Assembly (NCBI GenBank): GCA_938049125.1
Contig: CALICR010000154.1
Coordinates: forward strand, 1 to 33,135
DNA: 33,135 bases
Direction of reading: 5' to 3'
From: an uncultured Clostridia bacterium
GTDB taxonomy: Bacteria; Bacillota; Clostridia; Oscillospirales; Oscillospiraceae
The notes below the pieces were generated by a model, which was not told the origin of the DNA, did not search any database, and saw only the letters and a list, made by a program, of their open reading frames with translations. The translations under genes and the position numbers were made by a program. This document shows positions 6,676 through 26,486 of the stretch, in pieces (the stretch's first letter is position 1; every line of letters starts with the position of its first letter).

Positions 6676-6691
6676 ACCGAAAATCAGAGAG

Positions 6692-6730
6692 AAAAACCGC
6701 GGCAGAACGCCTCTGCCGCGGTTTTTCTTT
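6692..6730 (+). terminator. Strong rho-independent terminator
   Basis: 12-bp stem AACCGCGGCAGA (6695-6706) / TCTGCCGCGGTT (6712-6723) with loop ACGCC, followed by TTTTTCTTT. Confidence 0.9.
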
Positions 6731-6758: not shown

Positions 6759-6787
6759 TTGCAACGGGTCGGCATCCTTAGTATAAT
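6759..6787 (+). promoter_or_regulatory. Putative sigma-A promoter at the head of the glycopolymer locus
   Basis: TTGCAA (6759-6764), a 17-nt spacer, then TATAAT (6782-6787). It sits 34 nt upstream of the ATG at 6821 and directly after the terminator. Confidence 0.55.
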
Positions 6788-6820
6788 GATACGGAAAAGG
6801 AAATAAGGGGGAATCGTCAA

Positions 6821-8899
6821 ATGGCAGATCAGAACGCCCCAAATCGTCGGACGCAGTGGGGGAATTGTGCGCTCATTGGGCTCTTTACTGCGGCAACGTT
6901 TTTTTTGTTCGGGCCGCTGAACCTCTATGTGAGCAATAAAAATGAGTTTTCTTTTTATCTTCGGGACATTTTGCCGTGGATCCTCGGGTGCTTTTTGCTT
7001 GCGGCTTTGGTCCTGACGGTTATCCCCGCCGCAATCCGGAATAAAAGGGCGCGGGATATCGTGCTTGCGGTGATTCTGGGGCTCGGCATCGGGTTTTATG
7101 TGCAGGGGAATTTTATGTCCGGCGGCTATGGGCAGCTGAACGGAAAGAGCATCGACTGGGACGCGATGACCGGACGCGGCATTGTCAACACGGTCGTGTG
7201 GGCGCTCTGCATTCTGCTGCCGGTCGCGGCGGTCCTGTTTGTGAAGGGATGGAAAACGGCGTTCCTGCGCGATGCCGCTCTGGCACTGACGGCGGTGCAG
7301 CTGCTGGCAACGGTGATCGCTTGTGTGGCGGCACCGGCCAAGCAGGACGTAGACTTCACCATCAATACCGACGGAGCCTTCACGCTGGCAGAGGAAAACA
7401 ATGTTGCCGTCTTCCTGACGGATACCTTTTATTCGGAGCTGTTCGAGGAGATCATCACAGAGGATCCCTCCTATTATGACGTTTTTTCCGGTTTTACGTT
7501 TTTCAAGGATACCTCCGGCGTCGGCTGCTCAACAAAGGGCACGTTGCCGTATATCCTGACGGGTGTCTGGAATGAGAATAAGATGCCGTTCCATGATTAC
7601 ATTGACCATGCCTATGATCACAATACACTGTATGAGACACTGCTGGATCGGCAGTATGACACGAGACTGTACGTGACAACCCGCTTTGTCAGCGCGAAGC
7701 ATACGCAGTATTTCGCCAACATTACCGGCGGCTCCGGACTTGCGGACCCGGCGGCGACAGCGGGCCTCATGTATAAATTTACGGCATTCACCTATATGCC
7801 GCATTTTCTGAAGCCGCAGTTCTGGTTCTATTCCGGTGATTTCTCCGCGGTTGACAGCGGAGAACGCGCGGATCATTCCCTGCGCCTCTCGCCGGACAGC
7901 GCTTTTTATTCCAGCCTGTGTGAGGCCGGGATCACGGTCGATCCGTCCTATGCGGGAACCTATCGCTTTTACTATCTGAACGGTCCCCACGCGCCCTACG
8001 TGATGGATGAGCACGCCCAGGCGGCAGAGGAGGGAACGGTGACACAGCGGCAGCAGGCGATCGGAACGCTTGAGATTCTCCGCACGTATCTGGAGCAGCT
8101 GCGCGAAACAGGGCTTTACGACAGTACGACGGTCATGATTCTGGCCGACCACGGCGCGGAGACAAAGAATTATATCAATCCGATGCTCTGCGTCAAGCCT
8201 GCGGGCGCGGCGGACGAACCGCTGAAGGTCTCCTCCGCGGAGATTGCGTTCTCGGACCTGCAGCCGACCCTGCTGAAGGCGATCACGGGCGACGAGTCCC
8301 TGACGAGCGTTTTTGATATCCCGGAGGGCGAAAGCCGGGAGAGAAGAGCGATTTGGTACGTGTGGAACCATGCCGCCTGGCAGGAGGATTACCTTCCGGA
8401 CCTGAGCGAGATCTTGATCACAGGAGACGTCCGCGACCTGTCCACCTGGCGCCCCACGGGGCATATGTATACTGCGAGCGGAGAAAAAGTGACGGATTAC
8501 AGCTATGAGTTGGGGACGGAGCTCTACTATAACGGTTCGCAGTTTGACGAAGAACACTATTTTATTGGCCTTTCCTATCCGGAGGAAAATTTCACCTGGA
8601 CCGATGGGGAATGGGTGAACTGGAATTTCCGCCCTGTGCAGTACGAAGGGGAAGACCTTGTATTCCGCGTAAATTACGTTGCCGCGCTGGATAATCAGAA
8701 GGCGATCCTGCATGTCAATGGATATGAACAGGAGCTGACGGTCGGGGATGGAGAGACGCTGGAGTATGTGATCCCGGAGGAATATATTTTGGACGGGACA
8801 CTCTCCCTGTTTTTACAGCTCCCCAATTACCGGCGCGGGGATGGGGATGCGAGAGATATCGCGGTGGCCATCCGTAGTATCTCGCTGAACGCGGAATAA
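6821..8899 (+). CDS. LtaS/sulfatase-type (alkaline-phosphatase superfamily) membrane phosphotransferase with an extra C-terminal domain
   Basis: 692 aa with an AAGGGGGA RBS. About five N-terminal TM helices are followed by an extracytoplasmic domain with NVAVFLTDTF, STKGTLPYILTG (candidate nucleophile Thr region) and MILADHGAE (the sulfatase-family DHG motif). The last ~150 aa contain GLSYPEENFTWTDGEWV, a pattern recurrent in envelope-glycan proteins. Confidence 0.8.
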   Translation: MADQNAPNRRTQWGNCALIGLFTAATFFLFGPLNLYVSNKNEFSFYLRDILPWILGCFLLAALVLTVIPAAIRNKRARDIVLAVILGLGIGFYVQGNFMSGGYGQLNGKSIDWDAMTGRGIVNTVVWALCILLPVAAVLFVKGWKTAFLRDAALALTAVQLLATVIACVAAPAKQDVDFTINTDGAFTLAEENNVAVFLTDTFYSELFEEIITEDPSYYDVFSGFTFFKDTSGVGCSTKGTLPYILTGVWNENKMPFHDYIDHAYDHNTLYETLLDRQYDTRLYVTTRFVSAKHTQYFANITGGSGLADPAATAGLMYKFTAFTYMPHFLKPQFWFYSGDFSAVDSGERADHSLRLSPDSAFYSSLCEAGITVDPSYAGTYRFYYLNGPHAPYVMDEHAQAAEEGTVTQRQQAIGTLEILRTYLEQLRETGLYDSTTVMILADHGAETKNYINPMLCVKPAGAADEPLKVSSAEIAFSDLQPTLLKAITGDESLTSVFDIPEGESRERRAIWYVWNHAAWQEDYLPDLSEILITGDVRDLSTWRPTGHMYTASGEKVTDYSYELGTELYYNGSQFDEEHYFIGLSYPEENFTWTDGEWVNWNFRPVQYEGEDLVFRVNYVAALDNQKAILHVNGYEQELTVGDGETLEYVIPEEYILDGTLSLFLQLPNYRRGDGDARDIAVAIRSISLNAE

Positions 8900-8939
8900 A
8901 TCTCTGCGTGAACGACAAGGATGGCGAAAGGGATAGCGA

Positions 8940-10820
8940 ATGAACAAACTCTTGGAACTTCTGGGCGTACCGCTTTGTGCGCTGATGACGGTTTGCTATG
9001 ATCTGGTACACAACTATGTGGTCGCCATTGTGATCTTCACGGCACTGACGAAGATCATTCTGCTGCCGGTCTCCATGTGGGTGCAGCGGAACGGCATTGC
9101 TATGGTGCGCATGATGCCGGAGCTGAACAGGCTGAAGATCAAGTATTTCGGCGATCAGGAGACGATCGCCGAACAGCAGCAGGCACTTTACAAAAAGGAG
9201 CACTACAGCCCACTGGTCAGTACGGTGCCGATGATCATTCAGATCGTCCTGCTGATGGGTGTCATCGGTGCGGTCAAGACGCTGCTTGGCAGTGCCGAGA
9301 GCACACTGAACCTCATTCCGATGCAGGCGGGCGGCGCAACGCTGCTGATGCCGCTGGGGGCAGGGCTTGCGGCGCTCTGCCTGACGCTGGCGCAGAACAA
9401 GATTGGCCCGCTGCAGCGTGAGCAGGTGAAGGCGGAGCAGATCATGACCGGTGCCGTTTCCGTGTGCATCTCGCTGTTCCTCGGCGCATTCGTGTCGCTG
9501 GGAACCGGCGTGTACTGGATCGCAAGCAATCTTTGGTCGATCCCGCTTCAGCTCCTGCTGAACATTCTCGTCAATCCGAAAAAGTACATCGACTATGAAG
9601 CGCTCGAAGCCAGCCGCAAGGAGCTGGCAACGATGACCAGCCTCGGCACCACGGTCTCCAAGGAGGACAAAAAACGCGAGAAGGCGGACTACAAGCGCTT
9701 TTTCTCTGTGGCGAACAAGCATCTTGTGTTCTATTCCGAAAAGAGCGGCTTCTATAAGTATTTCCAGAACGTCATCGAATATCTGCTTTCTCACTCGAAT
9801 GTCATCATTCACTATGTGACGAACGATCCGAACGACAAGATCTTTGAGCTGGCGAAGGAGCAGCCGCGCATCCGTCCCTATTATATCGGGCCGAAGAAGA
9901 TCATCACGCTGATGATGAAGATGGACGCGCAGATTGTCGTTATGACGACGCCGGATCTCGAGAATTACTACATCAAGCGCAGCTATGTCCGCAAGGACAC
10001 CGAGTACATCTACCTCTGCCATGGCGTGATGAGCACGACCATGTGCATGCGCAAGGGCGCCTATGACCACTTCGATACCGTCATGTGTGTCGGTCAGCAC
10101 CAGATCGACGAGATCCGGGAGACCGAGGCGATGTACCATTTGCCCGCCAAGAATCTCGTGCCCTGCGGCTACGGCATGCTCGACAATATGCTTGCTGCCT
10201 ATGAGAAGATGCCGGAGGAAGCGCACGCGCAGAAGCGTATCCTGATCGCGCCGTCATGGCAGGAGGGCAACATTCTGGAGAGCTGCATCGAGGAGCTGGT
10301 GCAGCAGCTCTACGGCGAGGGACACTTCGTGGTCGTCCGTCCGCACCCGGAATTCATCAAGCGGTTCCCCGGCAAGATGGAAGCCATTGCGGCGAAGTTC
10401 CAGAATCTTGATCCGAAGCTCTTCAGTCTGGAAACGGACTTCTCCTCCAACGTGACAATCTACACGGCGGACATCGTCATCACCGACTGGTCCGGCATCG
10501 CGCAGGAGTTCGCGTTCACGACCAAGCGCCCCGTCCTGCTCATCAACACGCCGATGAAGGTGCTGAATCCTGAATATGTCAAATATGAGCACCAGCCGCT
10601 CGACATCACGCTCCGTCCGGAGCTTGGCAGGACGCTGGAGCTGGATGAAATTTCCAAGGCGGGCGCGGCGGTCGAGGAGCTGCTTGAAAACCGCGCCTAC
10701 TATGCGGAAAGACTGGATGAAATCACGCGCCGCTGTGTGTTCAATCTCGGCTCCAGCGGTGCTGCTGCGGGACGCTATATTCTGAAGAAGATCAGCAAGC
10801 CCGTGAAAACAACGAAATAA
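8940..10820 (+). CDS. Fusion protein: N-terminal YidC/Oxa1-like insertase domain plus C-terminal TagB/TagF-type CDP-glycerol glycerophosphotransferase domain
   Basis: 626 aa in one uninterrupted ORF. The N-terminal part (~aa 1-215) reads VAIVIFTALTKIILLPVSMWVQRNGIAMVRMMPELNRLKIKYFGDQE..QQALYKKEHYSPLVSTVPMIIQIVLLMG, matching the YidC TM1/coiled-coil/TM2 pattern. The C-terminal part (~aa 255-620) has ILIAPSWQ, VVVRPHPEF and ADIVITDWSGIAQEFAFTTKRPVLLIN, all typical of TagF-family enzymes. Confidence 0.8.
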   Translation: MNKLLELLGVPLCALMTVCYDLVHNYVVAIVIFTALTKIILLPVSMWVQRNGIAMVRMMPELNRLKIKYFGDQETIAEQQQALYKKEHYSPLVSTVPMIIQIVLLMGVIGAVKTLLGSAESTLNLIPMQAGGATLLMPLGAGLAALCLTLAQNKIGPLQREQVKAEQIMTGAVSVCISLFLGAFVSLGTGVYWIASNLWSIPLQLLLNILVNPKKYIDYEALEASRKELATMTSLGTTVSKEDKKREKADYKRFFSVANKHLVFYSEKSGFYKYFQNVIEYLLSHSNVIIHYVTNDPNDKIFELAKEQPRIRPYYIGPKKIITLMMKMDAQIVVMTTPDLENYYIKRSYVRKDTEYIYLCHGVMSTTMCMRKGAYDHFDTVMCVGQHQIDEIRETEAMYHLPAKNLVPCGYGMLDNMLAAYEKMPEEAHAQKRILIAPSWQEGNILESCIEELVQQLYGEGHFVVVRPHPEFIKRFPGKMEAIAAKFQNLDPKLFSLETDFSSNVTIYTADIVITDWSGIAQEFAFTTKRPVLLINTPMKVLNPEYVKYEHQPLDITLRPELGRTLELDEISKAGAAVEELLENRAYYAERLDEITRRCVFNLGSSGAAAGRYILKKISKPVKTTK

Positions 10821-10833
10821 AAGGAGAATCATC

Positions 10834-11091
10834 ATGAAAAAACTGCTCGGACGTCTTTATTTTGTGATCTGCTTTGTGCTGATCCTTTCTCTCAGCGCTT
10901 CTGCGTATCTGGACCCCTCCGTCATGACCTATGCGATCCAGATCATCGCCGGCATTGCCGTTGCGGTCGGCGCGGTGGTCGGTATTTACTGGCGCAAGGC
11001 GAAGAAAAAGGTGCAGGATAAGCTCGGCATCGACGAAAACAGCAAAAAGGAACAGGAAGAGGACGTCATCGAGATCAGAGAAGAGGACTGA
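10834..11091 (+). CDS. Small membrane protein, unknown function
   Basis: 85 aa with an AAAAGGAGAA RBS. It has a signal/TM segment, then AYLDPSVMTYAIQIIAGIAVAVGAVVGIYWRKAKKK (a second TM), and a K/E-rich tail. Confidence 0.7.
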   Translation: MKKLLGRLYFVICFVLILSLSASAYLDPSVMTYAIQIIAGIAVAVGAVVGIYWRKAKKKVQDKLGIDENSKKEQEEDVIEIREED

Positions 11092-11109
11092 AGACCTTTC
11101 TAAGCTGCA

Positions 11110-11146
11110 GCACGACGGTCTCGCGGCCGTCGTGCCATATTCTTTT
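11110..11146 (+). terminator. Intra-locus hairpin, a possible weak terminator or attenuator
   Basis: Perfect 9-bp stem GCACGACGG (11110-11118) / CCGTCGTGC (11127-11135) followed by CATATTCTTTT. The T-tract is short and interrupted. Confidence 0.4.
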
Positions 11147-11163
11147 CGGAATGGAGGAAGCCT

Positions 11164-12987
11164 ATGCAGGCAGTTATCCTGGCCGCCGGAATGGGAAAGC
11201 GGCTGAAAAGCCTGACCGCCAACAATACAAAGTGCATGGTGAAGGTCAACGGCGTGACGCTGATCGAGCGGATGCTGCGCCAGCTGGACCGGCTGAAGCT
11301 GCGGCGGATCGTCATCGTCGTGGGGTATCAGGGACAGAAGCTCATCGACTTTATCTCGACGCTGGACGTAGAGACGCCCATCGAGTACATCGACAATCCC
11401 ATCTACGATAAGACGAACAACATCTATTCCCTGGCACTGGCCCGCGGCGTGCTGGTGGAGGACGACACGCTCCTGCTGGAGTCCGACCTCATCTTTGCGG
11501 ATGGTACGCTGGAGGCCCTGGTCTCCGACCCGTATCCGACGCTGGCACTCGTGGACCGCTACGAGAGCTGGATGGACGGCACCGTTGTCACGCTGAACGA
11601 GGACAATTCCATCCGGAAGTTCATCCCCGGCAAGCAGTTCCGCTTCGAGGATATCCCCGGCTATTATAAAACGGTCAACATCTATAAGTTCAGCAGGCGT
11701 TTTTCGAAGGACATCTATGTGCCCTTCCTGACTGCCTATTCCTCCGCGCTGGGTGACAACGAGTACTACGAGCAGGTGCTCCGCGTGATCGCCATGCTGG
11801 ACCATCCGGAGATCCGCGCCAAGTGCATGGACGGGCGCGTCTGGTACGAGATCGACGATATTCAGGACCTCGACATTGCAGAGTCCATGTTTGCGCCGCC
11901 GGAGGAGAAGGTCAAGAAGCTCGGCAGCCGCTACGGCGGCTACTGGCGCTATCCCAAGCTGCTCGATTTCTGTTATCTTGTCAATCCCTATTTCCCGCCC
12001 AAGCGGCTGATGGACGAGATCAAGGCGAACTTTGAGACGCTGCTCACCCAGTATCCCTCCGGGATGCGCGTCAACTCGCTGCTGGCGGCGAAGGATTTCG
12101 GCGTGAAGCAGGAGCACATTCTCGTCGGCAACGGCGCGGCGGAGCTGATCAAGGCGCTGATGGAGGGCGAGACCGGCAAGGTCGGTTTTGTTCGCCCGAC
12201 ATTTGAGGAATATTATAACCGCTGCGACCCCGCGCAGCGCGTGGTCTATCAGCCCGAGGGATTCACCTACACGGCGGATGACCTCATGCGGGAGTTTTCC
12301 GGAAAGGGAATCTCGACGCTGCTGTTCATCAATCCGGACAACCCCTCCGGCAGCTACCTGCTGAAGGCGGAGGTCTGCCGCCTTGCGGACTGGGCGGAGA
12401 CAGAGGGCATCCGGCTGGTGCTGGATGAATCCTTTGCCGACTTCTCGGACGAGCTGGACAATACGCTGATCCTCGATGAGATGCTGGAGCGCTATCCGCA
12501 CCTCGTGGTGGTCAAGAGCATCTCAAAGTCCTACGGCGTGCCCGGTCTGCGCCTCGGCGTGTTGGCATCCGCGGATGAGGCGATGATCGCCGCCATGAAG
12601 AAGAATGTGGCGATCTGGAACATCAATGCCTTCGCGGAATTCTACCTCCAGATCGAGGAGAAATATAAAAAGGATTATGCGCTGGCACTGGAGAAGTTCC
12701 GTGCGGCGCGTGCGGAGTACGTCGCCGCGCTGCGGGACATTCCCGGTCTGCGGGTCCTGCCGTCGCAGGCAAACTATGTCATGGCCGAGCTGACCGGCGG
12801 CATCACCGCAGCGGAGCTGACGGCGCGGCTCCTGAGCGAATACAACATCCTCATCAAGGATCTCACGGCAAAGGTACAGGGTGGGCAGTATATCCGCCTT
12901 GCCGTCCGGGACGAGAAGGACAATGCGAGACTGGTGCAGGCGCTGCGCGCGGTCTGCGGCGGAGCTTTGGAGGGAAAGAATCCATGA
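11164..12987 (+). CDS. Bifunctional LicC-type (CTP:phospho-X) cytidylyltransferase / CobD-HisC-type class I/II PLP enzyme (FrbH-like architecture)
   Basis: 607 aa with a GGAGGAAG RBS. The N-terminal ~245 aa read MQAVILAAGMGKRLKSLT..KCMV, NNIYSL and VWYEIDDIQDLDIAE, which aligns with pneumococcal LicC motifs. The C-terminal ~360 aa have VGNGAAELI, FINPDNPSGSYL, LVLDESFADF, the PLP-lysine motif SISKSYGVPGLRLGVL, and WNINAFAE. Confidence 0.8.
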   Translation: MQAVILAAGMGKRLKSLTANNTKCMVKVNGVTLIERMLRQLDRLKLRRIVIVVGYQGQKLIDFISTLDVETPIEYIDNPIYDKTNNIYSLALARGVLVEDDTLLLESDLIFADGTLEALVSDPYPTLALVDRYESWMDGTVVTLNEDNSIRKFIPGKQFRFEDIPGYYKTVNIYKFSRRFSKDIYVPFLTAYSSALGDNEYYEQVLRVIAMLDHPEIRAKCMDGRVWYEIDDIQDLDIAESMFAPPEEKVKKLGSRYGGYWRYPKLLDFCYLVNPYFPPKRLMDEIKANFETLLTQYPSGMRVNSLLAAKDFGVKQEHILVGNGAAELIKALMEGETGKVGFVRPTFEEYYNRCDPAQRVVYQPEGFTYTADDLMREFSGKGISTLLFINPDNPSGSYLLKAEVCRLADWAETEGIRLVLDESFADFSDELDNTLILDEMLERYPHLVVVKSISKSYGVPGLRLGVLASADEAMIAAMKKNVAIWNINAFAEFYLQIEEKYKKDYALALEKFRAARAEYVAALRDIPGLRVLPSQANYVMAELTGGITAAELTARLLSEYNILIKDLTAKVQGGQYIRLAVRDEKDNARLVQALRAVCGGALEGKNP

Positions 12988-13928
12988 AAATCGTATCCTT
13001 CGACCAGATCACGAGGCTGAATATTTCGCCGTACACCTGCTATGAGTGGGTCAGCGAGGGCATCCGGCGGAAGCACGAAGCACTGCTGCCGGCAAAAATC
13101 AGCCTCAAGCCGGATATTCCGGGCGTGTTTTACAATACGATGCCGTCGATCCTGCCCTTTGCGGGCTATGCCGGCGTCAAGCTGGTGACGCGCTATCCGG
13201 AGCGCGCGCCGAGCCTCGACAGTGAGATCCTGCTCTATGATCTCGAGAGCGGCAAAAATCTGGCGCTGCTCGACGGAAACTGGATCACGACCATGCGAAC
13301 CGGCGCCGTTGCGGCACATTCGGTCAGGCTCCTGGCAAAGCAGGATTTCTCGACCATCGGTATGATCGGGCTCGGCAACACGGCACGCGCGGCATTCCTT
13401 GTGCTGCTGTCTCTCTATCCGGAGCGGCAGTTCACGGTGAAGCTGAAGCGCTACAAGGATCAGCATGAGCTGTTTGCAGCACGCTTTGCAGCGTATGCCA
13501 ATGTGAAGTTTGTCTACTGTGACAGCTATGAGGAGCTTGTGCGTGGCAGCGAGGTCGTGCTTTCTGCCGTCACAATGTTTGAGGATGACATCTGTCCCGA
13601 TGACTGCTTTGAGGAGGGCGTCCTGCTGGTGCCGATCCACACGCGCGGCTTTACCAACTGCGACCTGTTCTTTGACAAGGTGTTTGCCGATGATGTGAAC
13701 CATGTCAAGGGCTTCAAGAATTTCGGCAAATTCCGCAGCTTTGCGGAGGTGTCGGACGTTGTAAACGGCAAGGTGCCCGGACGCACGGACGATCGCGAGC
13801 GCATCCTCGCCTACAACATCGGAATTTCCCTGCACGACATCTATTTTGCAGGCAAAATCTATGAGCTGCTGGCAGCGCACTGCCCGGAGGCAGACCTGCG
13901 CGCACCGACGGAAAAATTCTGGATCTGA
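12984..13928 (+). CDS. Ornithine cyclodeaminase / mu-crystallin family NAD(P)-dependent enzyme
   Basis: 314 aa. Its ATG overlaps the upstream stop (ATGA at 12984-12987), and GGAGGGA lies upstream. It carries LLDGNWITTMRTGAVAAHSVRLLA and the Rossmann motif IGMIGLGNTARA, both typical of the OCD family. Confidence 0.8.
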   Translation: MKIVSFDQITRLNISPYTCYEWVSEGIRRKHEALLPAKISLKPDIPGVFYNTMPSILPFAGYAGVKLVTRYPERAPSLDSEILLYDLESGKNLALLDGNWITTMRTGAVAAHSVRLLAKQDFSTIGMIGLGNTARAAFLVLLSLYPERQFTVKLKRYKDQHELFAARFAAYANVKFVYCDSYEELVRGSEVVLSAVTMFEDDICPDDCFEEGVLLVPIHTRGFTNCDLFFDKVFADDVNHVKGFKNFGKFRSFAEVSDVVNGKVPGRTDDRERILAYNIGISLHDIYFAGKIYELLAAHCPEADLRAPTEKFWI

Positions 13929-13959
13929 GTGCCCGGCAGCCGTTTGGAGGAGTACTTCC

Positions 13960-14751: not shown

Positions 14752-14760
14752 GGTAGCGCT

Positions 14761-15867: not shown

Positions 15868-15888
15868 ATCAAATTGGGAGTATCAGAT

Positions 15889-18800: not shown

Positions 18801-19788
18801 CATCGGCGACAACTTTTATCAGCACGAGCCGTATACCACGGTGCTTCAGCAGCTGGGCATTGAGGTGCTCTACGGCCCCGAGTGCGCGGCACACTGGAAG
18901 GACTGGATCATCGACAATGCGGAGCACTTCGACTATGTGTTCCTGAACCGTCCCCACATTGCGCCGAAATACCTTGATTTCCTGCGGCTGTACACGCACG
19001 CCCGCATCATGTACTACGGCCACGACCTCGCCTTCCTGCGTGAGATGCGCGAATATGAGGTCACCGGCGACGCCTCCTTCCGTGACTCCGCCAAAGAGTG
19101 GATGCCCAAGGAGCTGGCGCTGATGCGCGAGGCGGACATGGCGTATTACCCCTCCTATGTGGAGGTGGATGAGATCCACAAGCTTGACCCGGATATCCGT
19201 GTCAAGGCGATTCCGGCCTACCTCTTTGAGAACGTCGAATGGGAGGGCTACGACTTCGCGGCGCGGAAGGACATCATGTTCATCGGCGGCTTCGGACACC
19301 GTCCCAATGTGGACGCGGTCAAGTGGCTGGCGGAGGACATCCTGCCCGCCCTGCGGAAGCTGCTGCCCGGCGTCAAGATCCATGTCCTCGGCTCCAACCC
19401 GCCGAAGGAGGTGCAGGCGCTGGCATCCAGTGACCTTATCATCGAGGGCTTTGTGACCGACGAGCAGCTTGATGCCTTCTACCGCGAGAGCCGGATTTCT
19501 CTGGTTCCGCTGCGCTACGGCGCGGGCATCAAGGGCAAGGTCATTGAGGCGATGCGCAATGGCACGCCGGTCGTGACCACGCCGACGGGTGCCGAGGGCA
19601 TCAAGGACGCCGAGTCGGTCATGGCAGTGGAGGAGACGGCGGAGGCGCTGGCAAAGCGCATTGCGGGGCTCTACAACGATGAAGCAGCGCTCACCGAGCT
19701 GAGCCGGAGGAGCGTGGAGTATGTGAAGAAGAATTATTCGCCCGCCAATGCAATTCAGGTCATCGGACCGGAATTTGATCTCACTTAA
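15889..19788 (+). CDS. Multidomain glycosyltransferase: GT2, unknown region, coiled coil plus amphipathic segment, GT2, GT4/GT1-like
   Basis: The ATG at 15889 has GGGAG 8 nt upstream, and I prefer it over the tracked TTG at 15874, giving 1299 aa.
- First GT2 domain: ISVVMPLFNTAQFL..VIVVDDCSTDGS..IDSDDVW.
- Heptad-like charged stretch: nt ~17355-17555 (QEEMTERHRARLRTMAQEQREQRRRMNEAHQQELAQLRQEKANVEGE), then SRSWRIAQFFSRI.
- Second GT2 domain: from ~17897 (VSIVVPVYNQ..ANDCSTD..LNNDT..EDSDLC).
- C-terminal GT4-like part: GGFGHRPNVDAV..EGFV..GAGIKGKVIEAMRNGTPVVTT. Confidence 0.85.
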   Translation: MEFQREHPPLISVVMPLFNTAQFLPAALESVLNQTYQNLQVIVVDDCSTDGSAEILASYDDPRLEIFRMEENSHVCAARNEGFRHVRGDYVATIDSDDVWLPEKLEMQLSWMEIHPDCGVCFTWSDMIDENGALANHENAWFYEMFRQPNRTQREWLLHLLEHGNCLNNSSPLMRRAVLDQVGGYNLTLVQLQDFEYWIRVVSKFPISVLPAKLVQYRRVRENNRSVSANNVTNKLRSENEEIFVCSHFFDWISDELFCELFRSDFHDSNASAAAELQCERVFLLRRAYCAPEPYLSRMQMLLCEPETTAVLRENYHYRPKDFYGENRVKRYFGRGLQLRQREEIEIEKATLCFALPDGASETIEFEKDPYVYERAGDRLICDAKIPAGAVAVTFRPIQCGSCILSELHICADRESLLAEEFTCTRIGDHWVYEAGKDTIFYPLPAQAERLTVSMRRTLIRAENEFLLGAGEHAFPTELQVCMKQARQTQEEMTERHRARLRTMAQEQREQRRRMNEAHQQELAQLRQEKANVEGECRQLRDTENRLLNDLDAIHHSRSWRIAQFFSRILRFFIPIGSKRALFCRILWMLIRHPVIFFRNLTPRKIKKALRMMRRGDTEGVRLLMRGKVTGEPAPSSIVTAVPELAAVDMREKTIDDYQPLTVPQWDDPTVSIVVPVYNQFEFTYHCVESILKHSGDVTYEILIANDCSTDLTTEIDKILPGVRCITNEQNLRFLRNCNRAAGFAKGKYILFLNNDTQVQPDWLRPLVTLIESAPDVGLVGSKLIYPDGKLQEAGGILWRDGSAWNFGNRQNPALPQFNYVKQVDYISGAAIMLSRKLWEEIGGFDETFAPAYCEDSDLCFTVRKLGYRVLYQPLSVVVHFEGVSNGTDTSSGQKKYQIENSKKFREKWAEELAKHPENGENVFQARDYSYGKKTLLMVDHYVPQFDRDAGSRTVFQYLKLFVSQGFNVKFIGDNFYQHEPYTTVLQQLGIEVLYGPECAAHWKDWIIDNAEHFDYVFLNRPHIAPKYLDFLRLYTHARIMYYGHDLAFLREMREYEVTGDASFRDSAKEWMPKELALMREADMAYYPSYVEVDEIHKLDPDIRVKAIPAYLFENVEWEGYDFAARKDIMFIGGFGHRPNVDAVKWLAEDILPALRKLLPGVKIHVLGSNPPKEVQALASSDLIIEGFVTDEQLDAFYRESRISLVPLRYGAGIKGKVIEAMRNGTPVVTTPTGAEGIKDAESVMAVEETAEALAKRIAGLYNDEAALTELSRRSVEYVKKNYSPANAIQVIGPEFDLT

Positions 19789-19809
19789 TTAAAAATAAGG
19801 AGGAATCCG

Positions 19810-20820
19810 ATGATTATCACCAAGACGCCGTTCCGGATGTCGTTTTTCGGCGGCGGCACCGATATGCCGCAGTTCTTCCGGGAGCACGGCGGCGCAGTCC
19901 TCTCGACCACCTTTGACAAGTACTGCTATGTGAATGTGCGCCATCTGCCGCCGTTCTTCGACTACCGTACGGAGCTTTCCTATGCAAAGACGGAGCGGGT
20001 CGTGGATCCGGCGGAGATCGAGCATCCTGCCATCCGCGAGGCAATGAAGCTGCTCGACATGTACGACATCCGCCTGACCTACGAGGCGGATCTGCCCGCC
20101 CGCACGGGACTCGGCACCAGCTCGTCCTTCGCGGTCGGCATGCTGAATGCATTCTATGCCCTCAAGGGCAAGTATGCGGACAAGAAGAAGCTCGCCAATG
20201 AAGCGATTTACCTCGAACGCACGCTCTGCAACGAGGCCGGCGGCTGGCAGGATCAGATCGCTGCGGCGTATGGCGGCCTCAACCGCATCAATTTCCACGA
20301 GGACAGCTACGATGTGCTGCCGGTCATCGTTTCGCCGGAGCGCAAGCAGCAGCTGAATCGGAATCTCATGCTTTACTTCACGGGCTTTACCCGCTTTTCC
20401 TCGGCGATTCAGCAGTCCACCAGCAAGACCATGAAGGACAAGACCACGCAGCTCCTCGAAATGCTGGCGCTGGTCGATCAGGCGGAGCGGGTCCTGACGG
20501 ATAAGACCGCCGATCTCGACGATTTCGGCAGGCTGCTCCACGAGAGCTGGATGCTCAAAAAGCAGACCGGCACGAAAATTTCGACGGGCGGCATCGATTC
20601 CATCTATGAAAAGGGGATGCGTGCGGGCGCACTGGGCGGCAAGCTGCTCGGTGCGGGCGGCGGCGGCTTCCTGCTCTTCTATGTGCGCGAGGAGGATCAG
20701 AGCGCGGTGCAGCGCGCCATGGGCGACCTGATGCGCGTGCCCTTCGCCTTTGAGGACGGCGGCACACGGGTCATCCACTACACGCCGGAAACCTATATTC
20801 CGAGAGGGGAAACGCAATGA
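19810..20820 (+). CDS. hddA: D-glycero-alpha-D-manno-heptose 7-phosphate kinase (GHMP kinase)
   Basis: 336 aa with an AAGGAGG RBS. The HddA-typical N-terminus is MIITKTPFRMSFFGGGTDMPQFF. The GHMP motif PARTGLGTSSSFAVG and GAGGGGFLLFY are present. It sits next to the other heptose pathway genes. Confidence 0.85.
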   Translation: MIITKTPFRMSFFGGGTDMPQFFREHGGAVLSTTFDKYCYVNVRHLPPFFDYRTELSYAKTERVVDPAEIEHPAIREAMKLLDMYDIRLTYEADLPARTGLGTSSSFAVGMLNAFYALKGKYADKKKLANEAIYLERTLCNEAGGWQDQIAAAYGGLNRINFHEDSYDVLPVIVSPERKQQLNRNLMLYFTGFTRFSSAIQQSTSKTMKDKTTQLLEMLALVDQAERVLTDKTADLDDFGRLLHESWMLKKQTGTKISTGGIDSIYEKGMRAGALGGKLLGAGGGGFLLFYVREEDQSAVQRAMGDLMRVPFAFEDGGTRVIHYTPETYIPRGETQ

Positions 20821-22109
20821 AAACGGTCATTATGGCAGGCGGCAAGGGGACGCGGATCGCCTCCGTCAATTCCGAGGTGCCGAAGCCGATGATCCCGATC
20901 CTCGGCAAGCCGATCCTCGAATACCAGCTGGACTGTCTGCGCCGCCAGGGCTGCACCGATATTATTCTGGTGATCGGGCATCTCGGTCACATCGTCCGGG
21001 ATTACTTCGGCGACGGCAGCGGCGTTTCTCCTGCAACGGGGGAGCCGTTTGGCGTCTCCATCGCATATATCGAGGAGACGGAGCCGCTCGGCACCGCCGG
21101 GGCGCTCTATCTCCTGAAGAACGAGCTGACGGAGGACTTTCTGCTCCTCTGCGGCGACGTCATCTTTGACATCGACGTTGGGCGCTTCGCCCGCTTCCAT
21201 AAGGAACACGGCGGACTCGCCACCCTGTTTACACACCCGAACAGCCACCCTTATGACAGCGGCATCATCATGGCGGACGGGGACGGGCGCGTCACGAACT
21301 GGCTCCACAAGGAGGAGTCGCGCAAATGGTATCGCAACCGCGTCAATGCGGGGCTGCACTTCCTCTCACCGGAGCTCTTCCGGCAGCCGGGACTGTTTGA
21401 AGAACTCAAAAAAGTCGACCTTGACCGCGAGGTGCTCAAGCCGCTGATCCCCACGGGACAGCTCTTTGTCTACGACAGTCCCGAATATGTCAAGGATATG
21501 GGCACGCCGGACCGCTTCTATGCCGTCACCGAGGACATCCGCAGCGGTAAGGTGCAGGCAAAGAACCTTGCCCATAAGCAGAAGTGCGTCTTTCTCGACC
21601 GGGACGGCACCATCAACCGCTATGTCGGCTTCCTGCGCAGAATCGACGAATTCGAGCTGCTGCCCGGTGTCGCCGAGGCCATCCGCAAGATCAACGAGTC
21701 CGGCTATCTCGCCATCGTTGCAACGAACCAGCCGGTCATCGCCCGCGGCGAGGTGACGGAGGCGGAGCTGCGGGAGATTCATAATAAGATGGAGACGCTT
21801 CTGGGGCAGGAGGGTGCCTATCTCGATGCCATCTACTACTGCCCGCACCATCCGCACAAGGGCTACGAGGGTGAGATCCCGGAACTGAAATTTGACTGCG
21901 ACTGCCGCAAGCCAAAGCCCGGCATGCTGCTGCAGGCTGCGGCGGACTTCAACATCGACCTCTCCGCGTCCTACATGGTGGGAGACGGTGAGAACGACGT
22001 GGAATGCGGCAAAGCCGCCGGCTGCACGCCGGTGCTGCTGACCGGAGAGGCGCGGACGGACGTGCGGTGCTGTCCCACGCTTCTTGATTTTGTGAACGAA
22101 ACATTCTGA
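20817..22109 (+). CDS. hddC-gmhB: Fused D-glycero-alpha-D-manno-heptose 1-phosphate guanylyltransferase (HddC-like) / D,D-heptose 1,7-bisphosphate phosphatase (GmhB)
   Basis: 430 aa with an ATGA overlap onto hddA. The N-terminal NTase domain has VIMAGGKGTRI..PKPMIPILGKPILEYQL. The C-terminal HAD-IIIA domain has VFLDRDGTIN, ATNQPVIARG, the Zn-site pattern CPHHP...CDCRKPKPGM, and MVGDGENDVE. Confidence 0.85.
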   Translation: MKTVIMAGGKGTRIASVNSEVPKPMIPILGKPILEYQLDCLRRQGCTDIILVIGHLGHIVRDYFGDGSGVSPATGEPFGVSIAYIEETEPLGTAGALYLLKNELTEDFLLLCGDVIFDIDVGRFARFHKEHGGLATLFTHPNSHPYDSGIIMADGDGRVTNWLHKEESRKWYRNRVNAGLHFLSPELFRQPGLFEELKKVDLDREVLKPLIPTGQLFVYDSPEYVKDMGTPDRFYAVTEDIRSGKVQAKNLAHKQKCVFLDRDGTINRYVGFLRRIDEFELLPGVAEAIRKINESGYLAIVATNQPVIARGEVTEAELREIHNKMETLLGQEGAYLDAIYYCPHHPHKGYEGEIPELKFDCDCRKPKPGMLLQAAADFNIDLSASYMVGDGENDVECGKAAGCTPVLLTGEARTDVRCCPTLLDFVNETF

Positions 22110-22134
22110 CTGAGACCGAAAGGAGAACTGCGCT

Positions 22135-22791
22135 ATGGAAGAACGTGTATCCGCACAGCTTGCACTGCTGCTTCGCCGCTATCCCGCGCTCTGTCCGCTG
22201 GAGGAAGAACTGAAGGCTGCCTATGAGATGCTGAAAGCATGCTATGCGGCGGGCGGCAAGCTGATCGTCGGCGGAAACGGCGGCTCCTGCGCCGATGCCG
22301 AGCATATGGTCGGCGAGCTGATGAAGGGCTTCAAGCTGCCCCGGCGGCTCCCGGAAGGGGAGCAGGCGGCGCTCCGCGCGGCGGACATGAAGCTTGGCGC
22401 GGATCTCTGCGAAAAGCTCCAGGGCGGGCTGCCTTCCATCGCACTCTCCGCACACCCGGCGCTCAATACGGCGTATCTCAATGATGTCTGCGGCGAGACG
22501 ATGTATGCCCAGCAGCTCTATGTGCTGGGTCGTCCCGGCGACGTGTTCCTCGGCATTTCGACCTCCGGCAACGCGCAGAACGTCTGCTATGCCGCCGTCG
22601 CTGCCAAGGCGCGCGGCATGCGGGTGCTCGCCCTCAGCGGCAAGACCGGCGGTGCGCTCAAGGCGCTGGCGGATCTCAGCCTCATCATGCCGAGCAGCGA
22701 GACCTATCAGATCCAGGAGCTGCACCTCCCGGTCTACCACTGCCTGTGCCTGATGCTGGAGGAGCATTTTTTCGGATCGCACCTAGGCTGA
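22135..22791 (+). CDS. gmhA: Sedoheptulose 7-phosphate isomerase (SIS domain)
   Basis: 218 aa with an AAAGGAGAA RBS. It has GGKLIVGGNGGSCADAEHMVGELMKGF and GISTSGNAQNV. Its context completes the GDP-heptose pathway. Confidence 0.85.
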   Translation: MEERVSAQLALLLRRYPALCPLEEELKAAYEMLKACYAAGGKLIVGGNGGSCADAEHMVGELMKGFKLPRRLPEGEQAALRAADMKLGADLCEKLQGGLPSIALSAHPALNTAYLNDVCGETMYAQQLYVLGRPGDVFLGISTSGNAQNVCYAAVAAKARGMRVLALSGKTGGALKALADLSLIMPSSETYQIQELHLPVYHCLCLMLEEHFFGSHLG

Positions 22792-22844
22792 CGGTCCGGC
22801 GGGGAGCGGACAAACGGTTTTGTGAGGGATGGAATGTGACAAGA

Positions 22845-25076
22845 ATGAAACGGACAAAAGGAGAATGGCTGTTCCTGGCACTCTGTATCCTGCTTGGACT
22901 GGCCGGAATGACCTGGTTTGGGGTGGCCATCTGGGACAAGAGCGCGCTGCACTGGAATATGCATCAGCCGGCCTACCTGAAGGGCGTGGCGGAGTTGACG
23001 GTCGTTTTTATCCTGCTGTTTCTCAGCCTTGCGCTACCGCGGCGGCGCATGACGTCGGCGGTGCTGACCGGGCTGATCGCGGCCGCGTCGCTCTTTGCGC
23101 ACGGCTTTCTCTGGGCATTTCTGGCGGGCTGCCTCTATGCCGGCATGATCTGTATGACCGGACGGCTTCTCTGCCGCCTGCTGGTGCGGAAGGATGCAGC
23201 GTCCACGCCGGTGTGTATCCTGCTGGGCATTGCCGGAATTCTGATTCTGGTCGCGGTCTGCTCCGTTTTCAAAATCGGCACGCCGCGGACACTGCGTCGT
23301 GTTTACGCAGTCGTTTTCCTGCTGGAGCTGGCGTTCCACACAAAGCCGCTGCTCGCGCTGCTGCGCACGCAGGGCAGGGAATCGCTGCGCCGCGGCGAAC
23401 GACTGAAGCCGTTCACGGCGCTGCTCCTGACCGGAATTTTTACGGCATTTCTGCTGCAATGCTGCCGCGCAAATCTGGGACTGGACTACGATTCCGTGTG
23501 GTACGGACTGCGCTCCTCGGCGGTGCTTGCGCCCTATACCGGCATCTACGATACCGCCGTGCCGGTGAGCTGCGTCTATGTCTATCCCAAAGGCATTGAA
23601 ACGCTGGCGCTGGCGTTCAACTTCCCGCACACCTACAGCTTCGTCCTTGCAGTCAACCTGATGGCTGCGGCGCTGCTGCTCTATGTGGTCTACAAAACGG
23701 CGCGGCAGCTCTGCGGGCGGGACTGGTCGCTGTTTGCCGTGCTCGGATGCGCCGTGACGGCGGGCATCATGAATATGGCGGTGACGGCGAAATCCGACAT
23801 TGCTACGCTGCTGTTGCAGATGCTTGCAGTGTATTTCGCGGTGCAGGCGCTGCGCGAAAAACGCGCTGCATCGGTCTGGCTGGCGCTGGGGGCACTGGTG
23901 CTCTCCCTCTGCTTCAAGCCGTCGAGCATGATCTTTTCGCTGCTTCTGCTGCTTATTATGCTCGTCTGCTTCCTTTGCAGCCGGGTGCGTATCCGTGCAC
24001 AGGGCATCGGGACGCTGCTGCCGCCGGTGCTGGCGCTGGGCTTCCTGATCGCACGTACCTATCTTCTGACCGGCTATTTCAACACCTCCTTTGCGCTGGG
24101 ACTGCAGGAGGCGCTGGGATGTGCGGCGAAATATCCGCACGCAGGCGGACAGTCCACCGCAATGAACGGACTGGGAAAACTGCTGACGACCTCACTGTTC
24201 GGCGAACGGCTAAAGCGGCTGCTCTGCTTCTTCCTCGCGCCCACGACTGAGGAGCTGGATCACGTCATCATCGCGTGGCCGGGGCTGCTGTTTGCAGCGG
24301 TCTGGCTGTTTGTCGTCATCCGGGTGTTCTCCCATCCGAAACAGACGGTCGCGCGGATGCGGGAAAATCACGCCTATGCGTTCTCGCTGAGCGCGCTGGC
24401 GCTGATCAGCCTTGCCAGCATGGGCAGCATTATGCTCCTGCCCAAGCCGGACGGCAACTACTTTATGTTGATGTACGCGATGACGATGCTGCACGGCGCA
24501 GTGGAGCTGTCCACACTGAAGAATCCGCGTACGGCAAACGCCTGCTTCCTCGGGAGCGTTCCTCTGATCGCCTGCGGCTTTGCGCTGTGCCTGGCGTCGA
24601 GCTGGGCCTGGAGCACCGGGCTGACGCCCATCGACCTGTCCGCGAAGGGGGCCTACGATCACACGGTGGCGCGGCAGCAGACGGCGGCCTCCATGGAGGT
24701 GGATGAACTCTGCGCGGTGCTGGACGCCAGGGAGACCCGGCCGCGCGTCCTCATTGTGGACGGCGAGGTCCGACTGCTGATTGGTACAGATGCTGTCACG
24801 GACAACTGGCGGGATGTGACGGACTGGAGCAACAATGAGTTGATCCATTCGCCGGAGGACCTGCTGCACTACCTGACAGCAAGCGGGATGGATTATCTGC
24901 TGGTGACCGCGGGGTATCTGGGATCGGAGAACATCCGGTCGCTCCTGCGCCCCATGGCGGAGGCAGGACAACTGCAGATCGCCGCGGAGCAGAATGGCAG
25001 CTATCTGCTGCGTTTCGTCCCGGAGGGAGCAGCGCCCGATGCCGCACTGCTGGCGGCATTTTCTGGAATACAGTAA
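22845..25076 (+). CDS. Large polytopic membrane protein, GT-C-like candidate extracytoplasmic glycosyltransferase or ligase
   Basis: 743 aa counted from the ATG at 22845. A GTG at 22836 or the tracked ATG at 22746 are alternative starts. There are at least 12 hydrophobic helices, an acidic loop motif GLDYDSVWYG after an early TM helix, and a ~150-aa soluble C-terminal domain. I recognise no family motif with certainty. Confidence 0.55.
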   Translation: MKRTKGEWLFLALCILLGLAGMTWFGVAIWDKSALHWNMHQPAYLKGVAELTVVFILLFLSLALPRRRMTSAVLTGLIAAASLFAHGFLWAFLAGCLYAGMICMTGRLLCRLLVRKDAASTPVCILLGIAGILILVAVCSVFKIGTPRTLRRVYAVVFLLELAFHTKPLLALLRTQGRESLRRGERLKPFTALLLTGIFTAFLLQCCRANLGLDYDSVWYGLRSSAVLAPYTGIYDTAVPVSCVYVYPKGIETLALAFNFPHTYSFVLAVNLMAAALLLYVVYKTARQLCGRDWSLFAVLGCAVTAGIMNMAVTAKSDIATLLLQMLAVYFAVQALREKRAASVWLALGALVLSLCFKPSSMIFSLLLLLIMLVCFLCSRVRIRAQGIGTLLPPVLALGFLIARTYLLTGYFNTSFALGLQEALGCAAKYPHAGGQSTAMNGLGKLLTTSLFGERLKRLLCFFLAPTTEELDHVIIAWPGLLFAAVWLFVVIRVFSHPKQTVARMRENHAYAFSLSALALISLASMGSIMLLPKPDGNYFMLMYAMTMLHGAVELSTLKNPRTANACFLGSVPLIACGFALCLASSWAWSTGLTPIDLSAKGAYDHTVARQQTAASMEVDELCAVLDARETRPRVLIVDGEVRLLIGTDAVTDNWRDVTDWSNNELIHSPEDLLHYLTASGMDYLLVTAGYLGSENIRSLLRPMAEAGQLQIAAEQNGSYLLRFVPEGAAPDAALLAAFSGIQ

Positions 25077-25146
25077 AACGCGGCACACCCGTGCCGTGGA
25101 ATATAGAAAGGATGATGTACCCATAGGAAAGCAAGAAAGAGAACAC

Positions 25147-26070: not shown

Positions 26071-26113
26071 TAAAAATGCGGCCTGCGCAGCATGCACAGG
26101 CCGCAGTTTTTTT
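26071..26113. terminator. Bidirectional rho-independent terminator
   Basis: Stem GCGGCCTG (26078-26085) / CAGGCCGC (26097-26104), flanked by AAAAA upstream and TTTTTTT downstream. It lies between the convergent darA and cupin genes. Confidence 0.8.
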
Positions 26114-26115
26114 GC

Positions 26116-26454: not shown

Positions 26455-26486
26455 GGAAAGCTCTCCTTTCAAAGTTCGGGCGGCGC

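Follow-up and report, generated by a model that had tools for sequence, protein, structure and literature searches.

What does a gut bacterium make with a run of genes that joins an ABC-type exporter, a heptose pathway, a supply of CDP-activated head groups and membrane-bound phosphotransferases, and how could such parts serve one and the same surface polymer? The question is posed by the locus at 6821-25076, + strand, of the window, by which we mean the whole stretch of DNA analysed here, 33,135 nucleotides from an uncultured Clostridia bacterium of the Oscillospiraceae (contig CALICR010000154.1). This window corresponds to an entire contig, C154, of a metagenome-assembled genome that spans 1.78 Mb over 227 contigs, has about 60% G+C and is 79% complete; for this last reason, the genome-wide absences reported below (TagO, phosphoenolpyruvate (PEP) mutase and SLH domains) are provisional. 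The nearest named relatives of the window proteins are from gut Oscillospirales, Angelakisella massiliensis among them.

A preliminary description of this DNA regarded the region as an envelope-glycopolymer locus, and gene content and domains support that view. The answer that we consider reasonably likely is a more detailed one: the locus would serve the synthesis of a heptose-containing surface polysaccharide, probably wall-linked, which would follow the ABC-transporter route and be finished outside the membrane, and module A would place on this polymer the phospho-head group made by module B. Three modules make up the locus, A (6821-11091), B (11164-13928) and C (13960-25076), each of which occurs elsewhere with other partners; the locus is not a single invention, but a mosaic of separately occurring modules. 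Its genes, and the one that follows them, are these:

6821-8899, + strand: module A, gene 1, ectoenzyme
8940-10820, + strand: module A, gene 2, YidC-TagF
10834-11091, + strand: module A, gene 3, small membrane protein
11164-12987, + strand: module B, gene 1, cytidylyltransferase-PLP (pyridoxal-phosphate) fusion
12984-13928, + strand: module B, gene 2, OCD family
13960-14751, + strand: module C, wzm (PF01061), with GGAGGAG as ribosome-binding site
14761-15867, + strand: module C, wzt
15889-19788, + strand: module C, 1299-aa glycosyltransferase
19810-20820, + strand: module C, hddA
20817-22109, + strand: module C, hddC-gmhB fusion
22135-22791, + strand: module C, gmhA
22845-25076, + strand: module C, GT-C glycosyltransferase, 743 aa
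25147-25611, + strand: GNAT acetyltransferase (Pfam Acetyltransf_7/1)

The starts of wzm (13960), of the large transferase (15889) and of the GT-C gene (22845) were moved to ATG codons with better ribosome-binding sites. The preliminary description had recognized an ABC-2 permease with its ATPase, a triple glycosyltransferase, a GDP-heptose pathway, a TagF-YidC fusion, an LtaS/sulfatase-type enzyme, a CDP-head-group module and a GT-C-like protein; all these domain calls were reproduced with Pfam and NCBIfam profiles, the two weak ones (sulfatase and GT-C) being settled by structure prediction. Its co-directional + strand run also holds, with a different count: the thirteen consecutive genes reported between 6821 and 25076 are twelve, since the thirteenth is the GNAT gene, which lies beyond that end.

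The transcription signals proposed at the start of the locus are likewise in place. A strong terminator, a hairpin at 6690-6728 (-35.2 kcal/mol, z = -7.2, none of 200 shuffles folding as well) followed by a U run, closes the upstream transcription unit. Behind it stands a sigma-70-like promoter, TTGCAA-17-TATAAT at 6759-6787, which agrees with the consensus at 10 of 12 positions and is a consensus match only, and a ribosome-binding site (AAGGGGGAA) precedes the ATG at 6821. The gaps, all below 75 nt, measure 40, 13, 72, 31, 9, 21, 21, 25 and 53 nt, and the coordinates of the open reading frames (ORFs) bear out the two ATGA overlaps of 4 nt at 12984 and 20817. Between modules A and B, a hairpin at 11110-11135 (11-bp GC-rich stem, -21.2 kcal/mol, z = -2.7, weak U tail) is possibly a leaky terminator, while 31 nt, and no terminator, separate the end of module B from wzm. 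An organization in one or two operons, as suggested before, is plausible from these signals. The GNAT gene may be the last of the unit, its membership being uncertain: only a tail-less hairpin, and no convincing terminator, lies between it and the GT-C gene, and it is missing at the equivalent position in L108, a locus of a near relative.

The nature of the polymer is a matter of module C, whose block of genes recurs in this near relative (L108) and in a distant locus (L109), and in part, as heptose genes and transferase core, in a third (L120). GmhA, HddA, GmhB and HddC are all encoded side by side at 19810-22791, with the expected GHMP kinase, NTP_transferase plus HAD (GmhB-type) and SIS (GmhA-type) domains, and HddC and GmhB are fused. 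Their NCBIfam scores are below the equivalog cut-offs for HddA (126 against 600), HddC (83 against 300) and GmhA (129-134 against 209), and at the cut-off for GmhB (176.5 against 178), so that their putative assignment to the GDP-heptose route rests on family and synteny. The heptose proteins are 97-99% identical in L108, 70-82% in L109 (82% for HddA) and 33-46% in L120, where the gene order has changed.

The exporter is formed by Wzm, with an ABC2_membrane domain (PF01061) and an NCBIfam Wzm/RfbD match, and Wzt, with an ABC_tran domain (PF00005) and NCBIfam matches to both Wzt/RfbE and TagH. Wzm is 99% identical in L108 and 72% in L109; Wzt is 80% identical in L109, and its best PDB matches, Aquifex Wzt and TagH/TarH, cover the nucleotide-binding domain only. 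A 125-aa C-terminal extension of Wzt gave no Pfam hit and no similarity to a Wzt bearing the Wzt_C domain, and is 75% identical in L109 even though the N-terminal module of the large transferase differs there. For a role of this extension as an O9a-type cap-binding domain, there is neither Wzt_C similarity nor co-variation with the N-terminal module.

The large transferase carries two GT2 domains and a GT4 domain within one protein: an N-terminal GT2 and beta-rich module (residues 1-~505), a coiled coil with an amphipathic segment (~515-610), and then a GT2 plus GT4 core. The core (residues 525-1303, comprising coiled coil, GT2 and GT4) keeps 74% identity in L109 and 59% in L120. In the corresponding genes of these two loci (L109:2462-6733 and L120:54-3326), methyltransferase domains stand in place of the N-terminal GT2 module. 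The architecture fits a swappable N-terminal module, a candidate for chain termination or capping of the WbbB/WbdD kind, and the swap pattern would fit strain-level antigen variation. Profile searches found no Polysacc_synt or Wzy_C domain in the window, and one Wzy_C on contig C107. At the DNA level, wzm, wzt, the transferase core and the heptose genes are 98-99.8% identical to L108, whereas 15905-17404 reaches only 63-78% (61% for the protein) and the GT-C gene goes from 83% at its start through 97-99% in the middle to 70-80% at its end. This mosaic divergence, at 15905-17404 and 22845-25099, looks like recombination-driven antigen variation, as far as such a comparison can suggest. In L108, an extra Acyl_transf_3 gene lies between gmhA and the GT-C gene. 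The large transferase is present in only one of four congeners, so the locus varies at the strain or species level, and conservation of the whole locus among relatives is ruled out.

The last protein of module C matches PMT_2 (28.3 bits against a cut-off of 26.1), and its AlphaFold2 (AF2) model, with a predicted local distance difference test score (pLDDT) of 83.6 and a C-terminal alpha/beta domain, has GT-C enzymes as all of its 33 best Foldseek matches in the PDB (STT3, PglB, AglB, AftA, EmbC, ArnT and ALG9/12; TM scores 0.35-0.48). The GT-C gene follows the heptose genes in L108 and L109, with 44% identity in the latter. Near these two orthologues there are Gtr- or Arn-like donor genes, which are not in the window. 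Those of L108 (14424-21010, - strand), downstream of GT-C, encode a DegT aminotransferase, a GT2, two small EamA proteins, an epimerase/dehydratase and an ATP-grasp protein; this Arn-like set suggests a polyprenyl-phosphate amino-sugar donor for the GT-C of that strain. A search for a donor synthase near the only GtrA gene of our genome (contig C113) led to unrelated neighbours, adenylosuccinate lyase and DUF1846.

Which head group would decorate such a chain? Module B, judging from its domains, probably makes a CDP-amino-alcohol head group. Its first product, of 607 aa, joins a LicC/PntC-type cytidylyltransferase (residues 1-~245; NTP_transf_3) to a CobD-like fold-type-I PLP domain (~260-600; Aminotran_1_2). 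The N-terminal part matches PntC (6pd1) and LicC (1jyk); the best PDB match of the fusion is 6oux (1.6e-47), named a 'threonine phosphate decarboxylase-like enzyme', with Salmonella CobD (1lc5, 1.4e-28) behind it, and the TIGR01140 score of 180.7 bits is below the equivalog cut-off of 290.55. We take 6oux, the link of code to protein being our assumption, to be SMUL_1544, an L-serine-phosphate decarboxylase reportedly described by Keller et al. in 2016 (cited in PMC6461909). From these likenesses, the fusion enzyme would use CTP and a phospho-amino acid, most likely phosphoserine, to give a CDP-amino-alcohol, most likely CDP-ethanolamine. The second product is a divergent member of the OCD/mu-crystallin family (OCD_Mu_crystall, PF02423, 99.7 bits), with Pyr2C reductase 6t3e, 4m54 and an archaeal alanine dehydrogenase as nearest structures. 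It is predicted to be an NAD(P)-dependent imine reductase or dehydrogenase, translationally coupled to the fusion gene through the ATGA overlap, and may N-alkylate the CDP-amino-alcohol; alkylamination of alpha-keto acids by an OCD-family enzyme is on record (PMC8446579). PEP mutase was not found in the 79%-complete genome, and a phosphate rather than a phosphonate head group is therefore expected; the phosphonate alternative, exemplified by the Angelakisella locus L006, is accordingly unsupported.

Module A offers the enzymes for transferring this group. The AF2 model of its first product (pLDDT 83.7) combines five transmembrane (TM) helices with an alkaline-phosphatase-fold domain and, at the C-terminus, a beta-sandwich, from which we predict an extracytoplasmic phosphotransferase of the alkaline-phosphatase superfamily with LtaS/EptA/PbgA architecture. 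Its top Foldseek matches are PbgA (YejM; 6v8q and 6xlp), full-length MCR-1 (9nww) and LtaS (2w5q and 4uor). By sequence, family membership was not reached (Pfam Sulfatase 23.2 against 25 bits; NCBIfam LtaS 17 against 970): the protein is a distant, unnamed branch of the LtaS/EptA/GacH-type phosphotransferases. Residues D201, T238 (in GCTTKG), H390 and D443-H444 (in LADHG) are invariant in 19 homologues, and T238 would be the equivalent of LtaS T300 and EptA T280; several of our residue equivalences to TagF, LtaS and YidC are drawn through motifs. The C-terminal beta-sandwich (window 8440-8899), present in one copy here and in three tandem copies in the homologue P0124 (964 aa), belongs to no Pfam family and is a candidate carbohydrate-binding module.

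The second product unites a YidC/Oxa1-like core of five TM helices (residues ~1-215; 60KD_IMP, PF02096, 91.3 bits against a cut-off of 35) and a cytoplasmic TagF-type domain (~255-620; Glyphos_transf, PF04464, 35.3 bits against 22.1) within one ORF. It has more than 7,788 relatives, identical in architecture among those listed, and is unevenly distributed, being carried by 8 of 151 genomes sampled within the order. In the TagF domain, H361, APSW437-440, RPHP467-470 and D516/S518 are invariant across the family and its unfused relatives; these residues presumably include the counterparts of the catalytic histidines of TagF. Instead of the arginine of the YidC groove on TM1, the fused family has Lys38 (LTK) throughout, by an alignment made by eye against the YidC motif, and the positive charge is retained. 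The YidC part equals the catalytic part in conservation, at a mean pairwise identity of 0.62 compared with 0.52-0.71. A separate, higher-scoring housekeeping YidC is encoded on contig C176 (143 bits), and the fused copy is therefore an extra, specialized one. Neither tagD nor tarIJ was found in the locus, whose neighbouring donor pathway is of the amino-alcohol type.

The third product of module A, of 85 aa and with a good ribosome-binding site, has a signal-like N-terminus, a YLDPSVMTY motif, one TM helix and a charged tail. Homologues with 47-74% identity are encoded 3' of YidC-TagF in L107, L110, L111, L112, L113 and L118; those of L006 and L120 share a gene cluster with YidC-TagF, where they come after phosphonate genes and after the cytidylyltransferase-PLP gene, respectively. 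In L010, the ectoenzyme carries a homologous segment as an N-terminal fusion (E = 9e-13).

The company that these genes keep in other genomes argues for their working as a set. Among ten independent loci, sampled from the order and beyond, the ectoenzyme gene adjoins YidC-TagF in nine (L006, L107 and L110-L116; not L007), usually together with the small gene, and the triad is also present in L118 and L120. There are permuted fusions as well: YidC with the ectoenzyme (942 aa), accompanied by a TM-anchored TagF, and the small protein with the ectoenzyme. The donor pathways beside the triad are of several kinds, namely phosphonate genes with PntC and PEP mutase, a TagD-like cytidylyltransferase, a cytidylyltransferase-oxidoreductase fusion with an aminotransferase, and module B; the third kind (L107:9642-12079 and L118:14551-17002) consists of a CTP_transf_like plus GFO_IDH_MocA fusion of about 450 aa and a class-V aminotransferase, and in L118 it comes additionally with PS_pyruv_trans and an FrhB-like iron-sulfur protein. 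In L007, two YidC-TagF paralogues (6813-8708 and 10001-11887) face each other across an integrase gene, one adjoining phosphonate genes and the other a TagD-like gene and a TylF-type methyltransferase.

Module B has a wider and still more varied distribution. Its fusion gene is encoded in at least 576 species genomes, and our neighbourhood counts refer to the best 80 of these, 63-69% identical and coming from Lachnospiraceae, Oscillospiraceae, Erysipelotrichales, Spirochaetes, Coriobacteriales, Desulfovibrio and Bacteroides. Judging from this spread, the gene is a mobile cassette. Anaerotaenia torta DSM 100431, Sarcina sp. DSM 11001 and Butyrivibrio sp. AE3009 are examples of cultured bacteria with module B, as Angelakisella massiliensis is for module A. 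Its partners in the 80 loci are LicD (30), an octopine-dehydrogenase-family gene (26) or an adjoining OCD gene (20), with other loci having neither dehydrogenase; since both dehydrogenases co-occur in three loci, the idea that they are strict alternatives is weakened. TagF-like genes are present in eight loci, seven of them with the ectoenzyme alongside, and the eighth ends at a contig edge with a next ORF that opens with a YidC core. In the 30 LicD loci, TagF is never present and the ectoenzyme appears in two, so that LicD and the triad appear to be mutually exclusive, as alternative uses of the same CDP donor. The same figures, seven of eight against 2 of 30, are the reason why the components of the triad are taken, from gene neighbourhoods, to belong together. 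Modules A and B occur together in L112; modules A and B and the heptose genes are reunited, in a different order, in L120, an argument for the heptose polymer as the target of the head group.

How the chain would be started and anchored can be approached from the rest of the genome. As stated before, profile searches of the window proteins found no priming transferase, LCP, Wzx/Wzy or SLH domain. Other contigs carry two Bac_transf (WbaP-type) genes (C151 and C111) and two LCP ligases, the only Glycos_transf_4 gene is MraY, and neither TagO/WecA nor an SLH domain was found in the 79%-complete genome. The acceptor, which the preliminary description considered unknown, is thus narrowed by genes outside the window, while its remark that the window itself lacks them stands. 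A classical wall teichoic acid locus is rejected as unlikely, given MraY as the only Glycos_transf_4 and no TagO/WecA in the 79%-complete genome, no TagD/TarIJ in the locus and a donor pathway of the amino-alcohol type. WbaP-type priming together with Wzm/Wzt has a precedent in Gram-positive slg clusters (PMC2943079).

These elements can be assembled into a route, each step of which is a proposal. A WbaP-type enzyme encoded elsewhere would prime undecaprenyl phosphate, the large transferase would polymerize the chain in the cytoplasm, with its N-terminal GT2 module capping or terminating it, and Wzm/Wzt would export it. On the outer face, GT-C would add a sugar from a polyprenyl-phosphate donor. 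Meanwhile, module B would make a CDP-activated amino-alcohol phosphate; this would most likely be CDP-ethanolamine, derived from phosphoserine and perhaps N-alkylated through the OCD enzyme. The TagF domain would load the head group from this CDP donor onto a membrane lipid at the inner face, the ectoenzyme would move it from the lipid to the exported polymer outside, and the YidC-like part would anchor the machine and may help the lipid to cross. LCP enzymes encoded elsewhere would finally ligate the polymer to peptidoglycan. For module A, we favour by analogy this putative relay, in which TagF loads a lipid inside and the ectoenzyme transfers the group outside, because, to our knowledge, every characterized enzyme with the ectoenzyme architecture draws the group that it transfers from a membrane lipid, and because a head group outside the standard set would require a lipid donor of its own. 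The relay in its fullest form, where the groove of the YidC-like part passes the charged lipid and the head group is a new one (phosphoserine-derived ethanolamine phosphate, N-carboxyalkylated in an opine-like manner by the OCD enzyme while CDP-bound), is in our opinion doubtful. Lipid scrambling by YidC and other insertases has been published (10.1101/2023.09.01.555937; PMC11997395).

Several points weigh against this scheme. The evidence in its support comes from sequence, structure prediction and synteny. We know of no lipid-loading TagF, and the enzymes of the TagF family, including FtaD, normally act, as far as we know, directly on the final acceptor in the cytoplasm. L007 holds its two YidC-TagF genes with no ectoenzyme within 10 kb; module A is also found with rhamnose-type loci and other head-group modules (L118, L107 and L006), and its target need not be the heptose polymer; and with the hairpin at 11110-11135, module A may not be coupled to modules B and C. 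The window has no GtrB-type donor synthase for GT-C, and the step given to the OCD enzyme is tentative, its gene accompanying the fusion gene in only 20 of the 80 loci, three of them also with the octopine-dehydrogenase-family gene.

In an alternative reading, the TagF domain would add the head group directly to the undecaprenyl-linked glycan before export, perhaps as a terminal cap, with YidC as a mere anchor and the ectoenzyme doing a separate, GacH- or EptA-like job with glycerol phosphate or phosphoethanolamine from bulk phospholipid. Direct action on the acceptor is what FtaD and TagF show (10.64898/2026.02.12.704994), GacH works without a donor pathway of its own (10.1101/337519), the cytoplasmic C-terminus of the YidC core would leave the TagF domain beside the nascent chain, and L007 has its YidC-TagF genes without a nearby ectoenzyme. 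However, direct decoration leaves unexplained why the ectoenzyme goes with TagF-like genes in 7-8 of 8 and in nine of ten loci and with LicD in so few, and why YidC is fused to either partner in turn; the YidC part is conserved beyond the needs of an anchor, and three other LtaS-type genes of the genome are already available for reactions with bulk lipids. We judge this alternative possible, though on balance unlikely. A different division of labour, with modules A and B decorating another envelope molecule (lipoteichoic acid, a glycolipid or another wall polymer) and only module C making the heptose glycan, would agree with the rhamnose loci and other head groups found beside module A in L118, L107 and L006, with the presence of module B in Wzx/Wzy loci with LicD, as in the congener G003, and with the hairpin after module A. 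Such a pair of unrelated neighbouring systems is nevertheless improbable: module B runs into wzm without a terminator, the OCD-wzm junction is retained in L108, and A, B and the heptose genes are again neighbours in L120, in another order, which adjacency by chance would not maintain.

The structure of GT-C raises a further alternative, in which this enzyme would act as an oligosaccharyltransferase and move the heptose glycan en bloc to a surface or S-layer protein. The best folds (STT3, PglB and AglB), the soluble C-terminal domain and a giant surface protein gene downstream (29279-33133) would agree with it, and the heptose-containing S-layer glycan of Aneurinibacillus thermoaerophilus, with its slg cluster, offers a precedent (PMC2943079). 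Nonetheless, the Foldseek TM scores are modest (0.35-0.48), ArnT, AftA, Emb and ALG are nearly as good, no WWDYG-type motif is among the invariant residues, and the GtrB/GtrA-like or ArnC/ArnE/F-like genes that relatives place near GT-C fit the transfer of single sugars. The 79%-complete genome showed no SLH domain and does have LCP ligases, and the known slg clusters use a Wzy_C-type transferase (PMC2943079). Protein glycosylation by this locus is thus highly improbable in our view, and we return to a wall-linked polysaccharide decorated outside the membrane.

That polysaccharide has well-known counterparts, and the idea that the combination of functions is unusual did not survive the comparison: its plan matches that of the wall carbohydrates of group A streptococci and S. 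mutans (10.1101/337519, 10.1101/180810, PMC9574508). In the streptococcal route, a polymer built on a polyprenyl carrier is exported by Wzm/Wzt, decorated outside by a GT-C enzyme and an LtaS-like protein with five TM helices, and ligated by LCP enzymes (10.1101/337519; 10.1101/180810; PMC9574508; PMC11754754). The rhamnose polysaccharides of gacA-L and of S. mutans SCC share with the window this export (GacD/E), a GT-C (GacL), an LtaS-like 5-TM enzyme (GacH) and LCP attachment, and GacH and GacL act outside on the ABC-exported polymer (10.1101/337519, 10.1101/180810). The differences lie in the backbone sugar supply (GDP-heptose here, dTDP-rhamnose there), in the primer (only WbaP types were found here, and none of the GacO/TagO type) and in the donor: GacH takes glycerol phosphate from ordinary phosphatidylglycerol, whereas in our locus the ectoenzyme comes with a TagF-YidC fusion and with a CDP-head-group pathway of its own. 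The overall plan is therefore known from Gram-positive wall polysaccharides, and modules A and B are unstudied. Literature searches that paired YidC with glycerophosphotransferase or sulfatase, or OCD or opine dehydrogenase with LicD or cytidylyltransferase, or that were directed at carboxyethylamino-ethyl phosphate, yielded no published study of either, and the gene set and order were not tied to any chemically defined polymer in the literature searched.

The slg clusters resemble the window in the Gram-positive GmhA/HddA/GmhB/HddC route that feeds an ABC-dependent glycan and in WbaP-type priming with Wzm/Wzt. Those known from G. stearothermophilus and P. alvei end in a Wzy_C-type O-oligosaccharyltransferase acting on an S-layer protein, while the window has no Wzy_C, a GT-C, an ectoenzyme and a head-group module; furthermore, no SLH domain was found here, and HddC and GmhB are fused. 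The E. coli O9a (WbdA/WbdD) and Klebsiella O12 (WbbB) systems also have a multidomain enzyme with a coiled coil between the N-terminal module and the polymerase domains. In relatives of the window enzyme that module is either a methyltransferase or a glycosyltransferase, and it is a candidate terminator here; unlike in O9a, the extension of Wzt has no detectable Wzt_C similarity and remains 75% identical when the N-terminal module changes.

For modules A and B, the closest relatives are found in other contexts. In the C. difficile flagellar Type A system (FtaA-D) a LicC-like enzyme is likewise followed by tailoring of a CDP-bound amino compound and TagF-like transfer to a sugar: FtaD, which is TagF-like, transfers a phospho-amino-acid out of a CDP donor, and the tailoring takes place on that donor (10.64898/2026.02.12.704994). 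FtaD is soluble, unfused to YidC and without a partner ectoenzyme, its acceptor is the O-GlcNAc of cytoplasmic flagellin, and the tailoring is an S-adenosylmethionine-dependent methylation instead of the work of an OCD-type reductase. Cytidylyl activation and PLP-dependent decarboxylation of phospho- or phosphono-amino acids link module B to FrbH (of FR-900098), CobD, SMUL_1544, PntC and LicC, and the presence of both domains in one chain is the FrbH layout; no PEP mutase was found in the genome here, and a phosphate ester is expected. Finally, the proposed module A relay resembles three-component glycosylation (GtrB/GtrA/GtrC; CsbB/GtcA/YfhO; ArnC/ArnEF/ArnT), where an inner transferase loads a lipid, a membrane part helps it to cross and an outer enzyme transfers the group. 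In our proposal the moved group would be a phospho-head group and not a sugar, and the families would be TagF, YidC and the alkaline-phosphatase superfamily.

Upstream of the locus there are two further genes of possible relevance:

4024-4971, + strand: nucleotidyltransferase (Pfam NTP_transf_3/NTP_transferase)
4987-6675, + strand: phosphohexomutase (Pfam PGM_PMM_I-IV)

Both could contribute to sugar-nucleotide supply, as a possible role in a separate transcription unit. The phosphohexomutase gene is kept in four congeners with 66-78% identity, and its neighbourhood holds different glycan loci in different congeners. In G003, a Wzx/Wzy-type glycan locus (L104, G003:C35:13000-32950) ends about 1.1 kb away from it; this locus runs towards the mutase on the opposite strand and encodes WbaP, GT4, two GT2, Wzy_C, Wzx, LicD, RmlABCD and a module B fusion gene of 68% identity. 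Three ORFs of the window, at 212-2332 (706 aa), 26092-26670 (192 aa) and 27378-28508 (376 aa), have no Pfam match, and given the high GC some of them may not be genes.

In gut Clostridia, susceptibility to phages, recognition by the immune system and colonization are all shaped by surface glycans, almost none of which is chemically defined. The locus described here would extend the streptococcal plan (build inside, export by an ABC transporter, decorate outside) to high-GC gut Oscillospirales and to a heptose backbone. The comparison between the window and L108, where the sharp differences are confined to the N-terminal module of the large transferase and to parts of GT-C, points to the site of antigenic variation. 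The module B fusion, for whose product our literature searches gave nothing, is widespread, being encoded in those 576 or more species; and if the relay of module A were true, it would explain how bacteria place head groups that are absent from their bulk phospholipids onto exported polymers.

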